A DNA stretch of 64,000 bases from Candidatus Yonathbacteria bacterium (GTDB lineage Bacteria; Patescibacteriota; Minisyncoccia; Phycocordibacterales; JACNGX01): contig JAAXWR010000002.1 in NCBI GenBank assembly GCA_013334825.1, forward strand, positions 155,009-219,008, written 5' to 3'. The notes under the pieces were generated by a model. It saw nothing but the letters and a program-made list of their open reading frames with translations, had not been told where the DNA came from and did no database searches. The stretch's first letter is position 1. Each line of letters opens with the position of its first letter. The position numbers and the translations under genes were made by a program. Below are positions 3,451-43,817 of the stretch, in pieces.

Positions 3451-3537
3451 TAGTTTCTCCTTATCTTTCGTTGTGAATGTGCGGTTTTTTGAGGCAAAAT
3501 AGCTCAATGAATCATGTGATATCTTAATATATGAAAA

Positions 3538-3683
3538 CCTTTCTGTCAAGAGCAAAACGGTTCTATTGAAGCTTTGATTTGAACTTATTTTGATATTGGT
3601 AGTTACGTAGCTTTTTTCGGATAAAACATACAGCAGTACATGTTTTATTCTCTTACCCCTCTGCGTTCGAATCCCTTCCTCTC
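3538..3683 (+). repeat. 146-bp direct repeat, copy 2. It pairs with 1541-1686.
   Basis: Direct alignment. It is followed at 3662-3725 by an inverted repeat CGAATCCCTTCCTCTCC..GGAGAGGAAGGGATTCG with a 17-bp stem. Confidence 0.9.
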
Positions 3684-4078: not shown

Positions 4079-4873
4079 CTACTTTTTATCATAGACAGAT
4101 TCGAATTGAATATTTTGATCACTTATTCTAATAACTTCGCCACTTTTTATTGGAATCGAGTACTCTTGTGTCTGTGGATTAAAATTTTTCCCAGATAACG
4201 CTATTTTTGAGATAATCTTGCCAACCACCTTAGGATCACGGAGTTGATGCTCCATAATTTTTAATTCTGTCCGATGTTTTATATCGCCTACGCCGAAGAC
4301 CAGGACTTCTTGGTGCATCCTTGTATTAACAGACCCTGGACTTATCATAATGATTGTTACGTCTTGATTTTCTGGTTTACCGCTAAAATCTTTTAACCAT
4401 TGTTCCATACGTAATTTACCTTCTCTGTATGTTTCAATTCCACCACCAAGATCAGTATGGGCAGTATCTGAAGTTATGAAAACTATTCTGCCATGATTTT
4501 CCCTTAATGATTCAATTGCTGTCCGCGACAAAGCAATATTTGCAACCTCGTTTACCTTAAAGGCATATTCCTTGTCTTCCTTTAGACCAGTTACCCCTGC
4601 ATTTAATATTAGAACATCTATCCCACCCAATTCTGAAATACTCTCATCAATAAATTCTTGAGCATTATGTCTATCAGCCAAATCGACTTGTTTGGCATGT
4701 ATATCTGGATGAAGTTTTTTTATTTCTTTAATCTTACTTTCGGTACGAGCACAGATAGCGATTTCATGACCCTCGTCAAGTAAATCGTCAGCAATAGCTC
4801 TCCCAATGCCTTCTGTTCCACCAGTTAAGACAACCTTTTTTGTTTCAAACATATTTTGATTTAGTTTTTCCAT
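4079..4873 (-). CDS. Short-chain dehydrogenase/reductase (SDR) family oxidoreductase.
   Basis: N-terminal TGGTEGIGRAIA Rossmann motif, SDR-like overall layout and an ISPGSVNT region. The start was moved to the ATG at 4873 (MEKLNQ..). Confidence 0.8.
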   Translation of the reverse strand: MEKLNQNMFETKKVVLTGGTEGIGRAIADDLLDEGHEIAICARTESKIKEIKKLHPDIHAKQVDLADRHNAQEFIDESISELGGIDVLILNAGVTGLKEDKEYAFKVNEVANIALSRTAIESLRENHGRIVFITSDTAHTDLGGGIETYREGKLRMEQWLKDFSGKPENQDVTIIMISPGSVNTRMHQEVLVFGVGDIKHRTELKIMEHQLRDPKVVGKIISKIALSGKNFNPQTQEYSIPIKSGEVIRISDQNIQFESVYDKK

Positions 4874-26149: not shown

Positions 26150-26240
26150 TGTTTCGTATGTTCCCTAGCACTGTGCATTGTGCACCACGTAGGATGCACA
26201 GCACGCCACGTGGGGTGCAGGGCAATCGTACTATTCGTAC
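26150..26240. repeat. Palindromic element of about 90 bp rich in CACGTGG, copy A (MITE-like).
   Basis: CCCTAGCACTGTGCATTGTGCACCACGTAGGATGCACAGCACGCCACGTGGGGTGCAGGG flanked by GTTTCGTATG / GTACTATTCGTAC. This is the reverse complement of the copies at 39583-39666 and 41563-41652. Confidence 0.75.
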
Positions 26241-26309
26241 TTCGTAACCCTTAATTCTTGCTTCGTGATTCCAGTATCCGTCCCTATCACCCATCACCTC
26301 TCTCCTAAT

Positions 26310-29741: not shown

Positions 29742-29854
29742 GGGAAAAGTATAGCATAAAGTAGGGGTTAGGTTATAGGGACGGACGGATATAGGAAAGA
29801 GGTTATAGGTGATAGGTACGGACATTGGAATCACGAAGCAAGAATCAAGAAGGA

Positions 29855-29885
<31 letters not shown>

Positions 29886-29920
29886 CAAAAAGCCGCGCTT
29901 GCGCGCGGCCGTGAATGGCG

Positions 29921-30154
29921 TTATTTGTGTCGCATGCTCTCAATGAGCTTTTTTGCGAGCTCAAGCTCCGAGATTGACTCGGGGTACCTGCCCTGCGACA
30001 GGTATATCGACATCCTCGCGTGAATGCAGCCGAGCAGCTGCACAAAGAAAGTTTTGTGTCCATATGGTGCGTTAATAACAATCGCACCACTCGATAATGA
30101 TGACTGCAGATCACTGCATTCATCCATCAACTTTTCAACATCACTATTTTTCAT
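29921..30154 (-). CDS. Hypothetical protein of 77 aa.
   Basis: ORF only. A weak AAAG lies upstream. Confidence 0.3.
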   Translation of the reverse strand: MKNSDVEKLMDECSDLQSSLSSGAIVINAPYGHKTFFVQLLGCIHARMSIYLSQGRYPESISELELAKKLIESMRHK

Positions 30155-30358
30155 TTCTTTATAGATTTTTTATTATTAGATCTAAGTCTTTTCTTATTAT
30201 ATACCAAATAGAATGTTTTGTCAATAGTATGGGAGGTGTGCAATAGAAAATATTATATGAAGCGGGGTTTGGGCGCTACGCGCCCAAACCCCGCAGTGTT
30301 TCCTAGCTTTCTCATCTCCTAACTTACTAACCTTCTGACATACTAACCTTCTAACCTC

Positions 30359-38421: not shown

Positions 38422-38819
38422 CAAAACGCCAGCGCCGAAGTATATCTTCGGCGCTGTTGCGTTTTGTAGACCCTACGGGGAATCGAACGGCGCAAGGCGG
38501 TATACAAGATGCGCAAGATTGCGCATGCTTGTCGCTGCGCCGCGTCCAGCGGTACTTATCAGAATGCGAGCATTGGCGAAGCATTATGATTAGTAACCGC
38601 GGGACGATTCCCCGTAGTGCCTTTCGTGAGAATCGAACCGAGCACCACTTTTGCAATGGCAAAAGTGGTGCTCGATGTCCAACAGTATCCAGCCCCACTT
38701 TCATAATAAACACATGTGCTGTGATAGATTTTTTATCCGAGTTATGAGTATTGTTTATGAATGAAGCCTCTCATGAAAGTGGAGCTGGATAACCGTGGGG
38801 ACGATTCCCCGTAGAGTCA
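38422..38819 (+). repeat. Composite element downstream of tRNA-Glu. It contains a long hairpin, a contiguous inverted copy of the tRNA 3' end, a GGCGCAAGGCGGTATACAAG box, H2, a direct 3' copy, H1, a roughly 100-bp CCAGCC hairpin and a second direct 3' copy.
   Basis: 38467-38490 TAGACCCTACGGGGAATCGAACGG is the reverse complement of the tRNA's 3' end. 38599-38621 reads GCGGGACGATTCCCCGTAGTGCC. 38797-38819 reads GGGGACGATTCCCCGTAGAGTCA. The modules align with those of the Gly, Arg and Val loci. Confidence 0.8.
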
Positions 38820-39548: not shown

Positions 39549-39582
39549 GGTGAGTTTCAAGTTTCAAGAATGGTTGTGAATA

Positions 39583-39666
39583 ACGAATATGTACGCCTGC
39601 CCGCATCCTTGTGGCGTGCCATGCACCCTGCGTGGTGCATGGTGCTGGGGAATGTACGAATACGAC
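39583..39666. repeat. Palindromic CACGTGG-rich element, copy B.
   Basis: GCCTGCCCGCATCCTTGTGGCGTGCCATGCACCCTGCGTGGTGCATGGTGCTGGGG flanked by ATATGTACGCC / AATGTACGAATACG. Confidence 0.7.
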
Positions 39667-39826
39667 TTCTTTATTTTTTACCGTTTATAGTTTTCGTCTT
39701 CATATTTCTAATTTCGTATTTCATCTTTCGTATTCTTGATTCCCGTCAATTCCATAATTCATAATTTATATCTATATCAATAAGTCATAAGCTCATACCT
39801 ATAAGCTAATTCCTTATTCCTCACAT

Positions 39827-40324
39827 ATGGACACCGTACTAAATCAGGAACTTCATCGGATTACTTCCACAGCGATTATTCATCGTGACGGGAAGTATTT
39901 GATTTTGAAACGTTCTCCTCACAAGAAGACGTTTCCGAGTAAATGGACAGTGCCAGGTGGTGGACTTGAGACAGATGATTACACGCAGACCGAGAAGACA
40001 ACACATGATCATTGGTATTATGCTATTGAGCGCTCACTCCGGAGAGAGATTAAAGAAGAATGTGGACTGGAAACAGGTAAATTGGACTATCTTTTGGATA
40101 TGACCTTTATTCGTCCTGATGGTACTCCTGTCATTGTTCTCAGTTATTATGGTCCGTATGTGTCAGGCGATGTCGTGCTTGATGAAGATAGTGTTGAGTA
40201 TGCATGGGTGGCGTGTGAAGAAGCAAAAACATACGATCTAATTGAAGGAATTGCCGAGGAGATAGAAATGGTAGATAGAATATTGAAAGGGGAGAAGGAT
40301 GTGATATTTGCGAGAGAGAAATAA
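39827..40324 (+). CDS. NUDIX hydrolase.
   Basis: The Nudix box ends in RREIKEECGLE. Size and layout are typical. Confidence 0.8.
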   Translation: MDTVLNQELHRITSTAIIHRDGKYLILKRSPHKKTFPSKWTVPGGGLETDDYTQTEKTTHDHWYYAIERSLRREIKEECGLETGKLDYLLDMTFIRPDGTPVIVLSYYGPYVSGDVVLDEDSVEYAWVACEEAKTYDLIEGIAEEIEMVDRILKGEKDVIFAREK

Positions 40325-40339
40325 AAAAAGAAATGACGC

Positions 40340-40445
40340 GGATACGATGCGGAACCTACGCGGACGTGATGCTGAACGAACGCGGAAAGTCGCGGAACCT
40401 ACGCGGACACGATGCAGATCAGACGTGGAATGTCGCGGAACGGGA
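40340..40445 (+). repeat. Tandem repeat of about 44 bp, roughly 2.3 copies (GCGGAACCTACGCGGACRYGATGC..).
   Basis: Read directly. A related ACGCAGAAT x3 repeat lies at 41495-41540. Confidence 0.6.
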
Positions 40446-41562
40446 TAAAAAATAGCATGAGGAGATTAAAAATTAGGAGATTACATGTTAAACGATAACA
40501 TACACGACGGATTGCTCTACGAGCAATCCGTCGTGTTGGTATATATAAAAACCGCTCTTGTGAGCGGTTGTGAAAAAAGGTCGCACGGGATGGTACGTGC
40601 GGGAGTTTGCGACCGTCCCATGGTCTTGGTCATGAGTGATGTCTGAAATTGCAGTGGAGCGCATTCAGAAACATATCGGGCGCGCCGTGCGACCTTTGAA
40701 ATCAAAAAAGAACTCATTGGAAATATCTTCTCCGCTTGAGACATGTTCGGACCGTGTCCGGATAACCGATTTCGGTCGCCCCTACTCTCGTAACTGTGCG
40801 CAAGCGGAGAAAGAATCAGCATACGAAATAAGATATTCTTTGCTCAGGATATATTGATAGGGTATGTTTGTCAATGACACGATACAAAAGGAAACCCCGC
40901 CGTTTTGGGCGGGGGGTGCGGGCTAGGGTCAGAGAGACCTTACCGCAATAAAAGAACAATACACTTTCCTTACTTGATATGCCCGTTTTGGGCGTCTCCC
41001 GGCAAGATGGAAATGGGGCCGGTAAGATTTTTCATCGTAAGGTTGAGCGGGTGTATCCGCATCGTGTGCCGTGCCACAGGAAGTGGCGTTTACTGACCTT
41101 ATCCATACGATCCCGTCTGCCTGACGGTCGGATAGATCAGAAAATTGTTGTCCTTGTTCCCTACCTAAAATAAAACAAGGATTTGGAGCTGATAACTCCA
41201 TGTATCCAACGTGACGGGGGATACAAGGACAACTTGGCAATTGCCAACCTCTCTTTGTTACCTTGCCCAAGGGAGAGAGGGTGGAGATAGGCGTTCCAAT
41301 GCCGTGAGTTCCATCGCTAGCTCAAGCCCGAAGGCGAGCGGCGCTCACGGTTTTTTAATGTGGCCATGCGTAATGGCCGCGGACCCCCGTATCCCGCAAT
41401 GAGCCAATGTGGCGTATGGGCGGGAACCTGAGGATGCTAGTATTATATACCAAAACAATTTTTTTGTCAAGCGTTTTTGTATATACGCAGAATCTATGCG
41501 GACACTACGCAGAATGACGCAGAATTTACGCAGAAGAGTTTTCATTTCGTGGAGATTGGTTA

Positions 41563-41652
41563 CGAAGTACGAACTTATACGCTTGCCCTGCACACCACGT
41601 GGCATGCTGTGCATCCTACGTGGTGCACAGTGCTAGGGAACATACGAACACT
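41563..41652. repeat. Palindromic CACGTGG-rich element, copy C.
   Basis: GCCCTGCACACCACGTGGCATGCTGTGCATCCTACGTGGTGCACAGTGCTAGGG flanked by GTACGAAC / CATACGAACA. Confidence 0.75.
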
Positions 41653-41853
41653 ACTGAATACAAATAATCATGTTGGTGAGTTTGTGTTCGTATGTTCGTA
41701 CTCGTTCATACTTCGTAACCCCTCATTCCTGTCCGTCTCTATAAACCTATCACCTCTAACCTCTTTCCTATTTTCGTCCACTCTTATCACCTCTAACCTA
41801 TTTCCTGCCCCCTGCTTCTTGCTTCGTGATTCTCATGTTATGATATTCTCCAT

Positions 41854-43281
41854 ATGGAACAAACAAAACGAGTCATTACCCCCCAAGCGGAGAATTTTCC
41901 CGAGTGGTATCAGGACGTAGTACGTGAAGCCGGACTTGCTGAAGTCTCGGAAGTGCGCGGATGCGGTATCATAAAGCCGTACGGATATAAAATTTGGGAA
42001 CTTATCAAAGCGGAACTTTCGAAAAAAATTGAAGCCACGGGCGCGGAGAATGTGTATTTTCCACTCTTTGTACCGATTGCTAATCTGGAAGCAGAAGCCG
42101 ATCATGTTGAAGGGTTCTCTCCGGAACTTGCAGTGGTTACGCATGCAGGCGGTGAAGAATTGACAGAAAAACTTGCCGTGCGTCCGACGAGTGAAGCGGC
42201 GATGTATACGACGTATGCAAAATGGGTGCAAAGCTATCGTGATTTGCCGATGCGTCTCAATCAATGGAACAATGTCGTGCGGTGGGAAAAACGTCCGCGT
42301 GCGTTTTTGCGCTGGAGCGAATTTCAGTGGCAAGAAGGACACTCTGTATTTGCCGATGAAGCAACGGCGGTTGATGAAGTCTGGCAGATGCTCGGTGTAT
42401 ATAAAGACATGTACGCACATATGGCGATCCCCGTCGTGGATGGCAAAAAGTCTGATATGGAAAAATTTGCTGGTGCTGTTATGACAACGACGGTAGAAGC
42501 GATGGCACGTGATGGCAAAGCGATTCAGGGAGGCACGAGTCATTATCTCGGTACCAATTTTGCCAAGGTATTTGATGTGAAGTATCTCGGTGCTGATGGT
42601 GAACATCATTTGGCACATCAAACAAGTTGGGGTATGAGCTGGCGCAGTGTGGGAGCGCTTATCATGGCACACGGTGATGATAATGGACTTCGATTGCCGC
42701 CCAATGTGGCACCGATTCAGGTTGTCATTGTACCGATTTATAAAGACGAGAACAAAGATACAGTGCTTGCGTATGCGCGTGAGGTTGCGAACAGTTTTTC
42801 TGGTATGCGCGTGCATGTGGATGTTCGTGAAGGGCAGACACCGGGATTCAAGTTTAATGAATGGGAAGTGAAGGGTGTGCCAGTGCGATTAGAGATTGGG
42901 GGTAAAGAAGCAGATGAAAAAGCGCTCACGGTTTATCGTCGCGATACAGGAGTGAAAGAAAAGATTTCCGCTGATGGAGCGAAAGAGTATATCGAGAAGC
43001 TCTTTGTCGATATCCATGAGACGCTTTACAATCAAGCGTACGACTTTCTCACGACACATATTCATCGTATTGAAAGCATTGATGATATTGATGACCGTAT
43101 TGGTTATTTTGAAGCAAGTTGGTCGGAAACACCAGAATCTGAGAAGATGCTTAAAGAGCGTTTTGCCATGGTCTCACGTGTGTTGCCTCGGGAGTTTGAG
43201 GGTGTGGAACCAAAAAATACAAAGTGCTTTATTACGGGAGAGCCTGCGAAGCATGATTGGTATTTTGCGAAAAGCTATTAG
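41854..43281 (+). CDS. proS: Prolyl-tRNA synthetase (archaeal/eukaryotic-like short form).
   Basis: Class II aaRS motifs with the ProRS-specific layout (FPEWYQDVV.., RPTSE, HAQ..FQWQEGH) and the C-terminal zinc-binding tail found in archaeal-type ProRS. Confidence 0.9.
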   Translation: MEQTKRVITPQAENFPEWYQDVVREAGLAEVSEVRGCGIIKPYGYKIWELIKAELSKKIEATGAENVYFPLFVPIANLEAEADHVEGFSPELAVVTHAGGEELTEKLAVRPTSEAAMYTTYAKWVQSYRDLPMRLNQWNNVVRWEKRPRAFLRWSEFQWQEGHSVFADEATAVDEVWQMLGVYKDMYAHMAIPVVDGKKSDMEKFAGAVMTTTVEAMARDGKAIQGGTSHYLGTNFAKVFDVKYLGADGEHHLAHQTSWGMSWRSVGALIMAHGDDNGLRLPPNVAPIQVVIVPIYKDENKDTVLAYAREVANSFSGMRVHVDVREGQTPGFKFNEWEVKGVPVRLEIGGKEADEKALTVYRRDTGVKEKISADGAKEYIEKLFVDIHETLYNQAYDFLTTHIHRIESIDDIDDRIGYFEASWSETPESEKMLKERFAMVSRVLPREFEGVEPKNTKCFITGEPAKHDWYFAKSY

Positions 43282-43407: not shown

Positions 43408-43500
43408 TGTTCGAGCCCCGTGTCACCACGCAAATACAAACAATCGCAAGGGCATGCCTTGCGATTGTGTATTTGTGGGCGACACAGGACTCGTCCCGCG
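43408..43500 (+). repeat. Direct repeat of about 93 bp, copy 1. It duplicates the downstream hairpin, the inverted T-arm copy and the last 18 nt of tRNA-Val. Copy 2 is at 43676-43768.
   Basis: The two copies are identical over roughly 90 nt (CGTTCGAGCCCCGTGTCACCACGCAAATACAAACAATCGCAAGGGCATGCCTTGCGATTGTGTATTTGTGGGCGACACAGGACTCG). They bracket a CCAGC hairpin module at 43503-43606. Confidence 0.9.
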
Positions 43501-43743
43501 GTTATCCAGCTCCACTTTCATAATAAACACATACGCCATGATAGATTTTTTATCCGAGACGTAGGTATTGTTTATAGATGAAGTCTCTCATGAAAGTGGG
43601 GCTGGATACCGTTGGACGCGGCGCGGCGACAAGCACTCGCGAGTAAACTCGCTCGTCTTGTATACCGCCTTGCGCCGTTCGAGCCCCGTGTCACCACGCA
43701 AATACAAACAATCGCAAGGGCATGCCTTGCGATTGTGTATTTG

Positions 43744-43817
43744 TGGGCGACACAGGACTCGAACCTGTGACCTTCACAATGTCAATGTGACGCTCTAACC
43801 AGCTGAGCTAGCCGCCC
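43744..43817 (-). tRNA. tRNA-Val (anticodon GAC).
   Basis: Manual fold: acceptor GGGCGGC/GTCGCCC, D-arm GCTCAGCTGGTTAGAGC, anticodon stem-loop TCACA-UUGACAU-TGTGA, T-arm ACAGG-TTCGAGT-CCTGT. Confidence 0.9.

Follow-up and report, generated by a model that had tools for sequence, protein, structure and literature searches.

Two candidate structured RNA genes in tandem beside proS in a Candidatus Yonathbacteria genome

Introduction

What does a GC-rich segment without a credible gene represent when it lies amid the housekeeping genes of a compact bacterial genome? This question is raised by a 64,000-nucleotide stretch of a Candidatus Yonathbacteria genome (contig JAAXWR010000002.1, positions 155,009 to 219,008; hereafter the window), in which such a segment (40850-41480) is found between a NUDIX gene and proS, the gene for prolyl-tRNA synthetase (ProRS). 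A previous inspection of the letters alone (the sequence-only reading) described it as an interval of 0.6 kb that is poor in open reading frames (ORFs) and bracketed by short tandem repeats, and proposed that it is either a structured RNA or decayed foreign DNA. Genomes of the Candidate Phyla Radiation (CPR; Patescibacteria) comprise about 1 Mb and are tightly packed, and to our knowledge very few non-coding RNAs (ncRNAs) beyond the universal ones have been described for them.

Based on comparisons with related genomes, we consider it fairly probable that the gap between the two genes holds two structured ncRNA genes, A and B, which would be arranged in tandem on the minus strand, restricted to a few lineages, previously undescribed and outside any described family. 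Here, we present the evidence for both units and weigh it against the alternatives.

Results and Discussion

Two minus-strand transcription units are predicted beside proS

The ProRS encoded in the window is 100% identical to one from a Candidatus Yonathbacteria metagenome-assembled genome. We compared proS-anchored contigs of relatives whose ProRS identity falls into six levels: 94% (L082), 87% (L083, L084 and L085, with L094, found by a metagenome motif scan, belonging to the same lineage), 84% (L096), 82% (L086), and 76% and 75% (L088-L090). Sequence related to the gap is present only in the 94% and 87% lineages, where it is syntenic with proS; the window, L082 and the L083 lineage are referred to below as the three lineages. 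The 87% lineage lacks the NUDIX gene, and the unit therefore tracks proS and not NUDIX.

The GC-rich, ORF-poor segment described earlier is real, but the gap without coding genes to which it belongs is considerably larger, spanning 1.5 kb (40325-41853; Table 1). Moreover, the segment corresponds to one of two adjacent units on the minus strand, whose orientation and true ends the sequence-only reading did not recognize; the better-conserved unit, B (40546-40839), lies mostly outside its coordinates and was likewise missed. Terminator-like sites are frequent in this part of the window (six in 39700-42000, five of them on the minus strand, versus 1.5 +/- 1.3 expected). The promoter of A is one of only two perfect TTGACA-17-TATAAT promoters in the 64 kb and is kept at 12/12 positions in L082 (5835-5807). 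B has a promoter of its own, which begins twenty bases beyond the A terminator on the same strand and recurs as TTGACA-17-TAnnnT, at the same place and with the same 17-nt spacing, in all three lineages. The terminator hairpin of A with its U tract is present in the window, L082 and L083, and the main terminator of B (40550-40569) is kept through compensatory changes in both relatives. A sigma-70-type promoter paired with an intrinsic terminator on the same strand is expected of ncRNA genes in general; for A this pairing is conserved between the window and L082, and for B it extends to all three lineages. We infer that both A and B would be made as stable RNAs.

A further hairpin lies between B and the convergent NUDIX gene. 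It had been reported as a perfect 15-bp stem at 40499-40531 within the flagged segment; the stem exists, but it comprises 16 bp at 40502-40536 and is located outside that segment, at the end of the other unit. In L082 the stem of its counterpart reaches 20 bp and runs into a T tract, and the element is probably an extra or bidirectional terminator.

The second perfect promoter of the window (30196-30224, minus strand) shares spacer sequence with that of A (TTGACAAAA...TTTGGTATATAAT). It drives a 77-aa ORF (29921-30154, minus strand) that is preceded by an AT-rich leader and followed by a clean terminator.

Unit B is a convincing candidate for a new structured RNA

The identity of B to its counterparts (87% in L082 and 78% in L083) is far above that at the near-saturated four-fold sites of proS (51% and 44%, respectively), and B is therefore under clear purifying selection. 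Consistently, shuffle-calibrated local alignment gives z = 138 with L082 and z = 34 with L083. In the consensus fold, 90.8% of the cells pair, and 18 of the 73 pairs are changed on both sides, compared with 6.4 +/- 2.0 in shuffled controls, none of 500 reaching the observed number, and 1-3 in slid ones. The predicted fold has a z of -3.6. Taken together, these features make B a convincing new structured RNA candidate.

Conservation in B concerns architecture as well as sequence. The two hairpins of the 5' domain have wholly different sequences in L083, and the architecture of the domain is retained. The long-range helix that closes the 3' domain reads GAUCACAUGG/UUGUGUGAUC in L083, where it remains 100% paired, with 10/10 pairs retained only on the minus strand; its changes comprise two compensatory replacements and three G.U changes, the latter being A.C mismatches if the plus strand is read. 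A covariance model of the 3' domain (R1) scores 151 bits at B, versus 16 bits for its next-best match in the window. The same domain contains an unpaired 20-mer, AAACUCCCGCACGUACCAUC, that hardly varies between the lineages, L082 differing at two positions; a search of the 64-kb window for a complementary target of this 20-mer at up to three mismatches returned none.

Within the 3' domain (40576-40697, minus strand), three segments can compete for the 3' strand CCGUGCGACC: the 5' strand GGUCGCACGG and two internal ones, GGUCGCA and CGCACG. The CGCACG alternative yields a hairpin that, with its U tract, resembles a terminator, and all of the alternatives can pair in L083 by means of G.U. The competing helices look like a switch, yet there is no downstream gene to regulate.

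Unit A retains its structure and composition while its modules turn over

A is predicted to be a GC-rich chain of local hairpin modules. Its core (40888-41436) has a GC content of 53.0%, compared with 42.0% in NUDIX and 46.9% in proS, and the enrichment recurs in all three lineages (0.53-0.54 in A versus 0.44-0.46 in the locus background). The fold of 40885-41436 is exceptionally stable (z = -5.3; 0/100 dinucleotide shuffles equally stable). The A-equivalents of the relatives are shorter, about 400 nt in L082 and 370 nt in L083, and likewise stably folded, with z = -6.1 and -3.2, respectively. Stable hairpins had already been noted in this segment, and those quoted at the time, CCCCGCC..GGCGGGG (40895-40914) and GCCAC..GTGGC (41073-41087), were recovered.

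We aligned the modules of A in a register set by hand; for module M11, the arms were entered by hand for the pair counts and the coordinates were taken from the module map. In the shared hairpins, 51 pairs are unchanged, eight have undergone compensatory changes, four still pair after a change on one side, and two are disrupted; on the minus-strand reading, six G.U cells stand against two A.C cells. Compensatory substitutions, another general feature of ncRNA genes, are thus found in both units (18 pairs in B and eight in A), in each case across only 2-3 sequences. Module M6 (CCGUC/GACGG) is the sole interior hairpin retained in all three lineages.

Global identity was not used as evidence for A, because even a control of poor relatedness reaches about 72% with the aligner used; shuffle-calibrated local alignment was used instead. 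By this measure, the 5' half, including the hairpin at 41350-41302, is common to the window and L083 (z = 44), and part of the 3' half is weakly shared with L082. Since these blocks are shared separately with the two relatives, the window copy looks like a union of modules, and it looks as if modules were lost or replaced differently in each relative. Judging from these alignments, what is conserved in A is the predicted transcription unit, its composition, its foldedness and a few hairpins, and most of its sequence is not conserved. The A/B unit as a whole is single-copy within the window.

Table 1. Predicted features of the gap between NUDIX and proS and of its flanks (positions are those of the window).
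Feature	Position	Strand	Description
NUDIX gene	39827-40324	+	Left neighbour, convergent to A and B
Left array	40336-40441	+	ACGCGGA-like heptamers in 11-nt phase; Tandem Repeats Finder period 43 x 2.2 copies
Perfect palindromic hairpin	40502-40536	-	16 bp; between B and the convergent NUDIX gene
Candidate ncRNA B	40546-40839 (40839->40546)	-	About 290 nt; 5' three-way-junction domain, U-rich linker, 3' domain, terminator
Stacked terminator-like hairpins of B	40601->40582, 40569->40550	-	The latter is the main intrinsic terminator
B 3' domain	40576-40697	-	Closed by a 10-13-bp long-range helix, GGUCGCACGG/CCGUGCGACC
Unpaired 20-mer of B	40589-40608	-	AAACUCCCGCACGUACCAUC; in the 3' domain; candidate interaction site
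B 5' domain	40727-40812	-	Long closing helix (CUCCGCUUG/CAAGCGGAG core) around two hairpins
Promoter of B	40846-40874	-	TTGACA-17-TATCCT, 10/12; TAGGAT in relatives
Intrinsic terminator of A	40885-40914	-	7-bp all-G/C stem and U tract
Candidate ncRNA A	40888-41436 (41436->40888)	-	About 550 nt; GC-rich chain of local hairpin modules
A module M11	40917-40947	-	GCGG-UAAG-hairpin-CCGC 3' module; three lineages, compensatory changes
A module M7	41073-41087	-	GCCAC/GUGGC hairpin (GCCACAGGAAGTGGC on the plus strand); GCCGC/GCGGC in L082
A module M6	41093-41140	-	CCGUC/GACGG hairpin; G-C to C-G swap in L083
A module M3	41302-41350	-	CCGUGAG...CUCACGG hairpin with UUCG tetraloop; two positions differ in L083; absent in L082
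Promoter of A	41442-41470	-	TTGACA-17-TATAAT, 12/12 consensus
Right array	41484-41535	+	ACGCAGA-like heptamers in 11-nt phase (period 11, 4.8 copies); immediately upstream of the A promoter
Dispersed intergenic repeats	41553-41838		Palindromic element and units of TATCACCTCTAACCT; lie between proS and the A promoter, outside the RNA units
proS (ProRS)	41854-43281	+	Right neighbour, divergent from A and B

The flagged segment carries no coding signal

The sequence-only reading had noted a GC content above that of the surroundings, and this is borne out: the flagged segment has 49.8% GC, compared with a window mean of 43.8% (631-nt windows, standard deviation 4.4%; 94th percentile). The enrichment is real, yet moderate. 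Equally in line with the earlier description, the segment contains only short, overlapping ORFs on both strands, including 40929-41270 (minus strand) and 40979-41173 (plus strand), none of which is credible. A Pfam search of seven ORFs from the segment gave no matches. In tblastx comparisons with the relatives, similarity was equal across the six frames and drifted between them, with no frame preference. The 113-aa ORF was searched exhaustively with HMMER against 1.84 billion representative proteins, which gave a single weak match of about 30 aa. Nine repeats in the subject multiply this match, and it is located in a block absent from the relatives; it is a repeat-inflated chance resemblance. 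In sum, neither frame-specific conservation nor protein-family homology, either of which would mark a protein gene or a pseudogene, was found for the segment.

The neighbourhood is made up of housekeeping genes (proS and the ftsZ/ftsA region), the nearest products being NUDIX, ProRS and a Zn-ribbon protein. The annotation of these neighbours revealed no integrase, transposase, reverse transcriptase, TnpB, Cas, Tas, par or rep genes near the gap.

Comparison with known RNA families and other elements

A scan against Rfam, the check proposed in the sequence-only reading, detected no known RNA in the gap at the gathering score when the whole window was searched. At E<=10, Rfam 15 returned only unrelated sub-threshold matches for the gap and the equivalent gaps of L082 and L083, and these matches differ between lineages. 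A missing Rfam match does not, however, refute a new RNA. The earlier finding that RNase P RNA, transfer-messenger RNA (tmRNA) and signal recognition particle (SRP) RNA are absent, with only fragmentary resemblances in the wrong order for RNase P, holds up. RNase P RNA has no match at E<=10 in any of the three lineages; in that RNA, the conserved regions CR-I (GAGGAAAGUCC) and CR-V follow each other in order and form P4, and in the gap the AAGGAAAGUG string lies 3' of the other RNase-P look-alike strings and is not conserved in L082 or L083. For SRP RNA, marked by its domain IV motif, and 6S RNA, a rod-like hairpin with a central bubble, no match was obtained at E<=10 in the three lineages, and the predicted folds of A and B, local hairpin chains or two domains, are unlike the rod of 6S RNA. 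tmRNA, which would combine a tRNA-like acceptor/T-arm domain with a tag reading frame, was detected neither by Rfam nor by ARAGORN, even at a relaxed threshold. At default stringency ARAGORN found neither tRNA nor tmRNA, nor a split tRNA when introns of up to 1 kb were allowed; relaxing the threshold produced four weak calls that do not agree with one another.

Group I introns deserve mention, as Patescibacteria are rich in them (PMC13011429). Such an intron could be free-standing or lie between the exon halves of a tRNA gene. The search made here covered RF00028, which has no match at E<=10 in the three lineages; that study worked with a custom bacterial tRNA-intron model, gpI_bact_tRNA.cm.

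A T-box leader of proS was considered as well. Riboswitches of this kind have a stem I with a specifier loop and an antiterminator, and they precede the regulated gene in the same orientation. B recalls such leaders in its position next to proS and in its mutually exclusive helices (S1/S2 versus S3) around a terminator-like hairpin; unlike them, however, A and B are transcribed away from proS, with no regulated gene downstream. RF00230 has no match on either strand, and the promoters and terminators lie on the strand opposite to proS. The tandem repeats invite a comparison with TIGR arrays, which occur in CPR bacteria and phages and consist of 36-nt units with two 8-9-nt spacers beside a Nop-domain Tas gene (PMC12045711). 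The arrays described here likewise combine short tandem repeats and scattered variable bases, and likewise occur in a CPR genome, but their units comprise 11 nt (a heptamer plus 4 nt). With this period of 11 nt (super-periods of 22 and 43 nt), variable parts of only 4 nt and no Tas gene nearby, a TIGR array was rejected.

Several orphan bacterial ncRNAs of large or medium size, such as raiA, ROOL, OLE and GOLLD, are structured RNAs found as GC-rich intergenic regions in AT-rich genomes, and A and B, as judged by analogy, resemble them in kind. A shares with them its length of about 550 nt, its GC enrichment and multi-hairpin fold, its own predicted promoter and intrinsic terminator, its non-coding character and its housekeeping surroundings. 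It differs in matching no Rfam 15 model of these classes, even at E<=10, and in being limited to three lineages; moreover, these RNAs have conserved cores, whereas the interior of A turns over module by module. In its architecture, A is also reminiscent of CsrB/RsmZ-type RNAs, which are multi-hairpin, protein-sequestering small RNAs: it has a beads-on-a-string layout with a variable number of modules, fast sequence turnover with hairpins kept, and a strong promoter. Unlike in those RNAs, the loops of A carry no repeated motif, GGA or otherwise. B, in turn, has the parts of a seed-type trans-acting small RNA: it comes with a predicted promoter and terminator, and its structured body is accompanied by a U-rich linker and an unpaired 20-mer. 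It is, however, larger than is typical of such RNAs (about 290 nt, with two elaborate domains), and no target was found for it in the window.

Weighing the alternatives

Several observations weigh against two RNA genes. The unit has been seen in three lineages only. Relatives at 84%, 82% and 75% ProRS identity have no such unit beside proS, and a metagenome scan with a conserved 21-mer of B (N at two variable positions) gave five matches, of which one, the L083 lineage itself, was true. The covariation counts, resting on 2-3 sequences, have limited statistical power. Consensus folding alone cannot tell the strands of B apart, so that the strand assignment rests on the promoters, the terminators and the G.U/A.C asymmetry of the long-range helix. 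The remaining points concern A. Its interior is barely alignable even with its closest relative, L082 (local z about 7, in part of the 3' half only), and a large part of A is therefore without sequence constraint; the A-equivalents of L082 and L083 have no detectable similarity to each other (z = 0.9), and the A promoter is not recognizable in L083. These points lend some weight to the main rival for A, namely that it is rapidly evolving, hairpin-rich intergenic filler with structure at the DNA level (accumulated palindromic or mobile mini-elements, or insulators of transcription or topology between the divergent and convergent neighbours) that yields a by-product transcript at most, B alone being a genuine RNA gene. 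The mosaic interior, with different blocks missing in the two relatives, would fit this explanation, as would the abundance of dispersed palindromic intergenic repeats in the genome and the duplication, within A, of a 12-mer from the A terminator hairpin. We nevertheless regard it as unlikely: the modules of A are single-copy in the 64 kb and belong to none of the dispersed repeat families, several hairpins have been retained through compensatory double changes, the GC content stays at about 0.53 in all lineages despite saturated neutral sites, and a perfect consensus promoter has been kept in two of them.

The remaining explanations fare worse. One takes the segment for a decayed gene or for what is left of foreign or mobile DNA, the sequence-only reading having suggested decayed foreign DNA alongside a structured RNA; it could account for the atypical GC content, the short overlapping ORFs, the direct-repeat arrays on its flanks and the 131-aa ORF that a gene caller placed in the equivalent region of L082. 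It has been largely refuted and is very improbable, given the drifting frames, the lack of Pfam matches and the nature of the lone HMMER match. In addition, no match was found in phage or plasmid records or in viral contigs (one 17-mer match to a viral contig lies within a membrane-protein gene and is due to chance), no mobile-element genes lie nearby, and the unit is syntenic with proS in three lineages, in which the arrays do not form conserved boundaries. Of the two sides of the earlier proposal, it is the structured RNA that agrees with the minus-strand promoter/terminator pairs, the compensatory hairpin changes, the GC enrichment in all lineages and the lack of a coding signal. We give even less credence to a highly divergent member of a known family (RNase P RNA, tmRNA, SRP RNA, 6S RNA, a group I intron, or a T-box-like leader of proS on the plus strand). 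The fragmentary motifs (AAGGAAAGUG, GCGGUAAGG, GUGGCACGG), the adjoining aminoacyl-tRNA synthetase gene and the wealth of group I introns in these bacteria speak for such a relationship, as does the reverse complement of the B 20-mer, which resembles what we take to be the T-box core. It conflicts with the uniformly negative or inconsistent searches in the three lineages, with the misordered and unconserved RNase-P-like strings and, in the case of a T-box, with the opposite direction of the transcription signals and the minus-strand terminators between B and proS. Least probable of all is a site that acts as DNA, such as a replication origin or a centromere-like partition site with the 11-nt arrays as iterons. 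Two phased heptamer arrays, spaced at about one helical turn, do flank the unit, and they are reminiscent of the 11-bp iterons of plasmid R1 parC. However, the GC skew is positive over the whole window with no switch, DnaA-box-like sites are neither enriched nor clustered, no par or rep genes lie near, and the arrays are missing from these places in L082 and L083 and found elsewhere in L082. Such a site would also leave the conservation and covariation of B unexplained.

Distribution and possible roles of the two RNAs

Two tandem ncRNA genes thus remain the reading that we favour, and in current data they are confined to a narrow sub-clade of Yonathbacteria. Further searches point the same way: proS synteny across the species representatives of GTDB gave 80 loci with no similarity to the gap, no such unit accompanies the relatives (<=60% identity) of the neighbouring 73-aa gene, and the R1 covariance model recovered known members only from the window and 1.07 Mb of fetched loci.

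A would be transcribed from position 41436 to 40888, between its perfect sigma-70 promoter and its strong intrinsic terminator, and B separately from 40839 to 40546, from its own promoter to the stacked terminators. A is probably expressed at a high level and dependent on its shape, with hairpin modules that are fluid. It may act through its shape, the hairpin chain serving as a protein-binding or a scaffold or decoy RNA, with structure and composition retained rather than sequence. B, by comparison, could act by sequence-specific contacts of its single-stranded 20-mer, together with the conserved closing helices; the contacts might consist of base-pairing to a target or of recognition by a protein.

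That some 0.9 kb amid core genes is given over to two non-coding units with strong promoters and multiple terminators implies a function that justifies the space. For a new RNA family, B offers a clean candidate, combining purifying selection, covariation and a near-invariant single-stranded 20-mer, and A displays an unusual evolutionary mode in which transcription unit and structuredness appear conserved and the content is fluid. The importance of both is tempered by how very narrowly they have so far been found to be distributed. A more far-reaching idea, which we consider quite improbable, is that A and B found two undescribed, CPR-specific RNA classes, with A being a highly expressed RNA of >500 nt whose modules are exchanged, lost or substituted between near-identical genomes and which, together with B, is engaged in an arms race or in partner-specific recognition, for example as a decoy against phage or host factors in episymbiosis. 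If this were true, the swapping of modules within a preserved transcription unit would be the signature of such an arms race or recognition.

Repeat arrays and dispersed elements of the window

The tandem repeats on both sides of the segment exist as reported, but their limits and periods differ from those given by the sequence-only reading. The left one, described as a 44-bp tandem repeat at 40340-40445, proves to be an array with a period of 43 and an 11-nt sub-period, and the right one, described as a threefold repeat at 41495-41540, has a period of 11 with 4.8 copies (positions in Table 1). Their role as brackets of the segment was not upheld, as neither occurs at the corresponding place in L082 or L083. 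L082 carries a similar array elsewhere, at 4256-4300, likewise on the plus strand and directly 3' of the stop codon of a 75-aa gene. On this comparison, the heptamer arrays are a clade-level repeat class that changes position. The phasing of the heptamers at one helical turn suggests a candidate protein-binding array.

Other repeats lie between the A promoter and proS. A palindromic element of about 100 nt (41553-41655) has further copies at 26153-26249 and 39567-39667 (75-87% identity) and is part of a 24-nt inverted-repeat structure (41558-41720) upstream of proS. A Logan contig with the same proS holds only 293 nt upstream of the gene and therefore ends near this element. Repeats of the form TATCACCTCTAACCT(C/A)TTTCCT occur at 41725-41806, 62597-62648, 58614-58690 and 29770-29849, just upstream of several genes; the genes with TATCACCTCTAACCT units are proS, the ORFs starting at 62760 and 58691, and a 794-aa ORF ending at 29888. 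The repeat resembles the 3' end of 16S rRNA, in the anti-Shine-Dalgarno sense, which is odd for a 5' leader.

Some repeats are associated with tRNA genes. An 85-nt perfect direct duplication (43409-43493 and 43677-43761) overlaps with one copy the 3' end of tRNA-Val (43743-43817, minus strand), and the segments 38475-38799, near tRNA-Glu at about 38.5 kb, and 43503-43689 are related in sequence (83-86% identity). GC-rich palindromes lie beside several tRNA genes. These arrangements could be partial tRNA duplications or att-like scars. Elsewhere in the window, tandem repeats of about 84 nt (60169-60783; about 82% identity) lie within an 838-aa ORF (60010-62526), implying a repetitive array of protein domains. 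Finally, a 148-nt direct repeat (1539-1686 and 3536-3683; 98.6% identity) is found in a region of higher GC (49%) near the beginning of the window, its two copies being about 2 kb apart.

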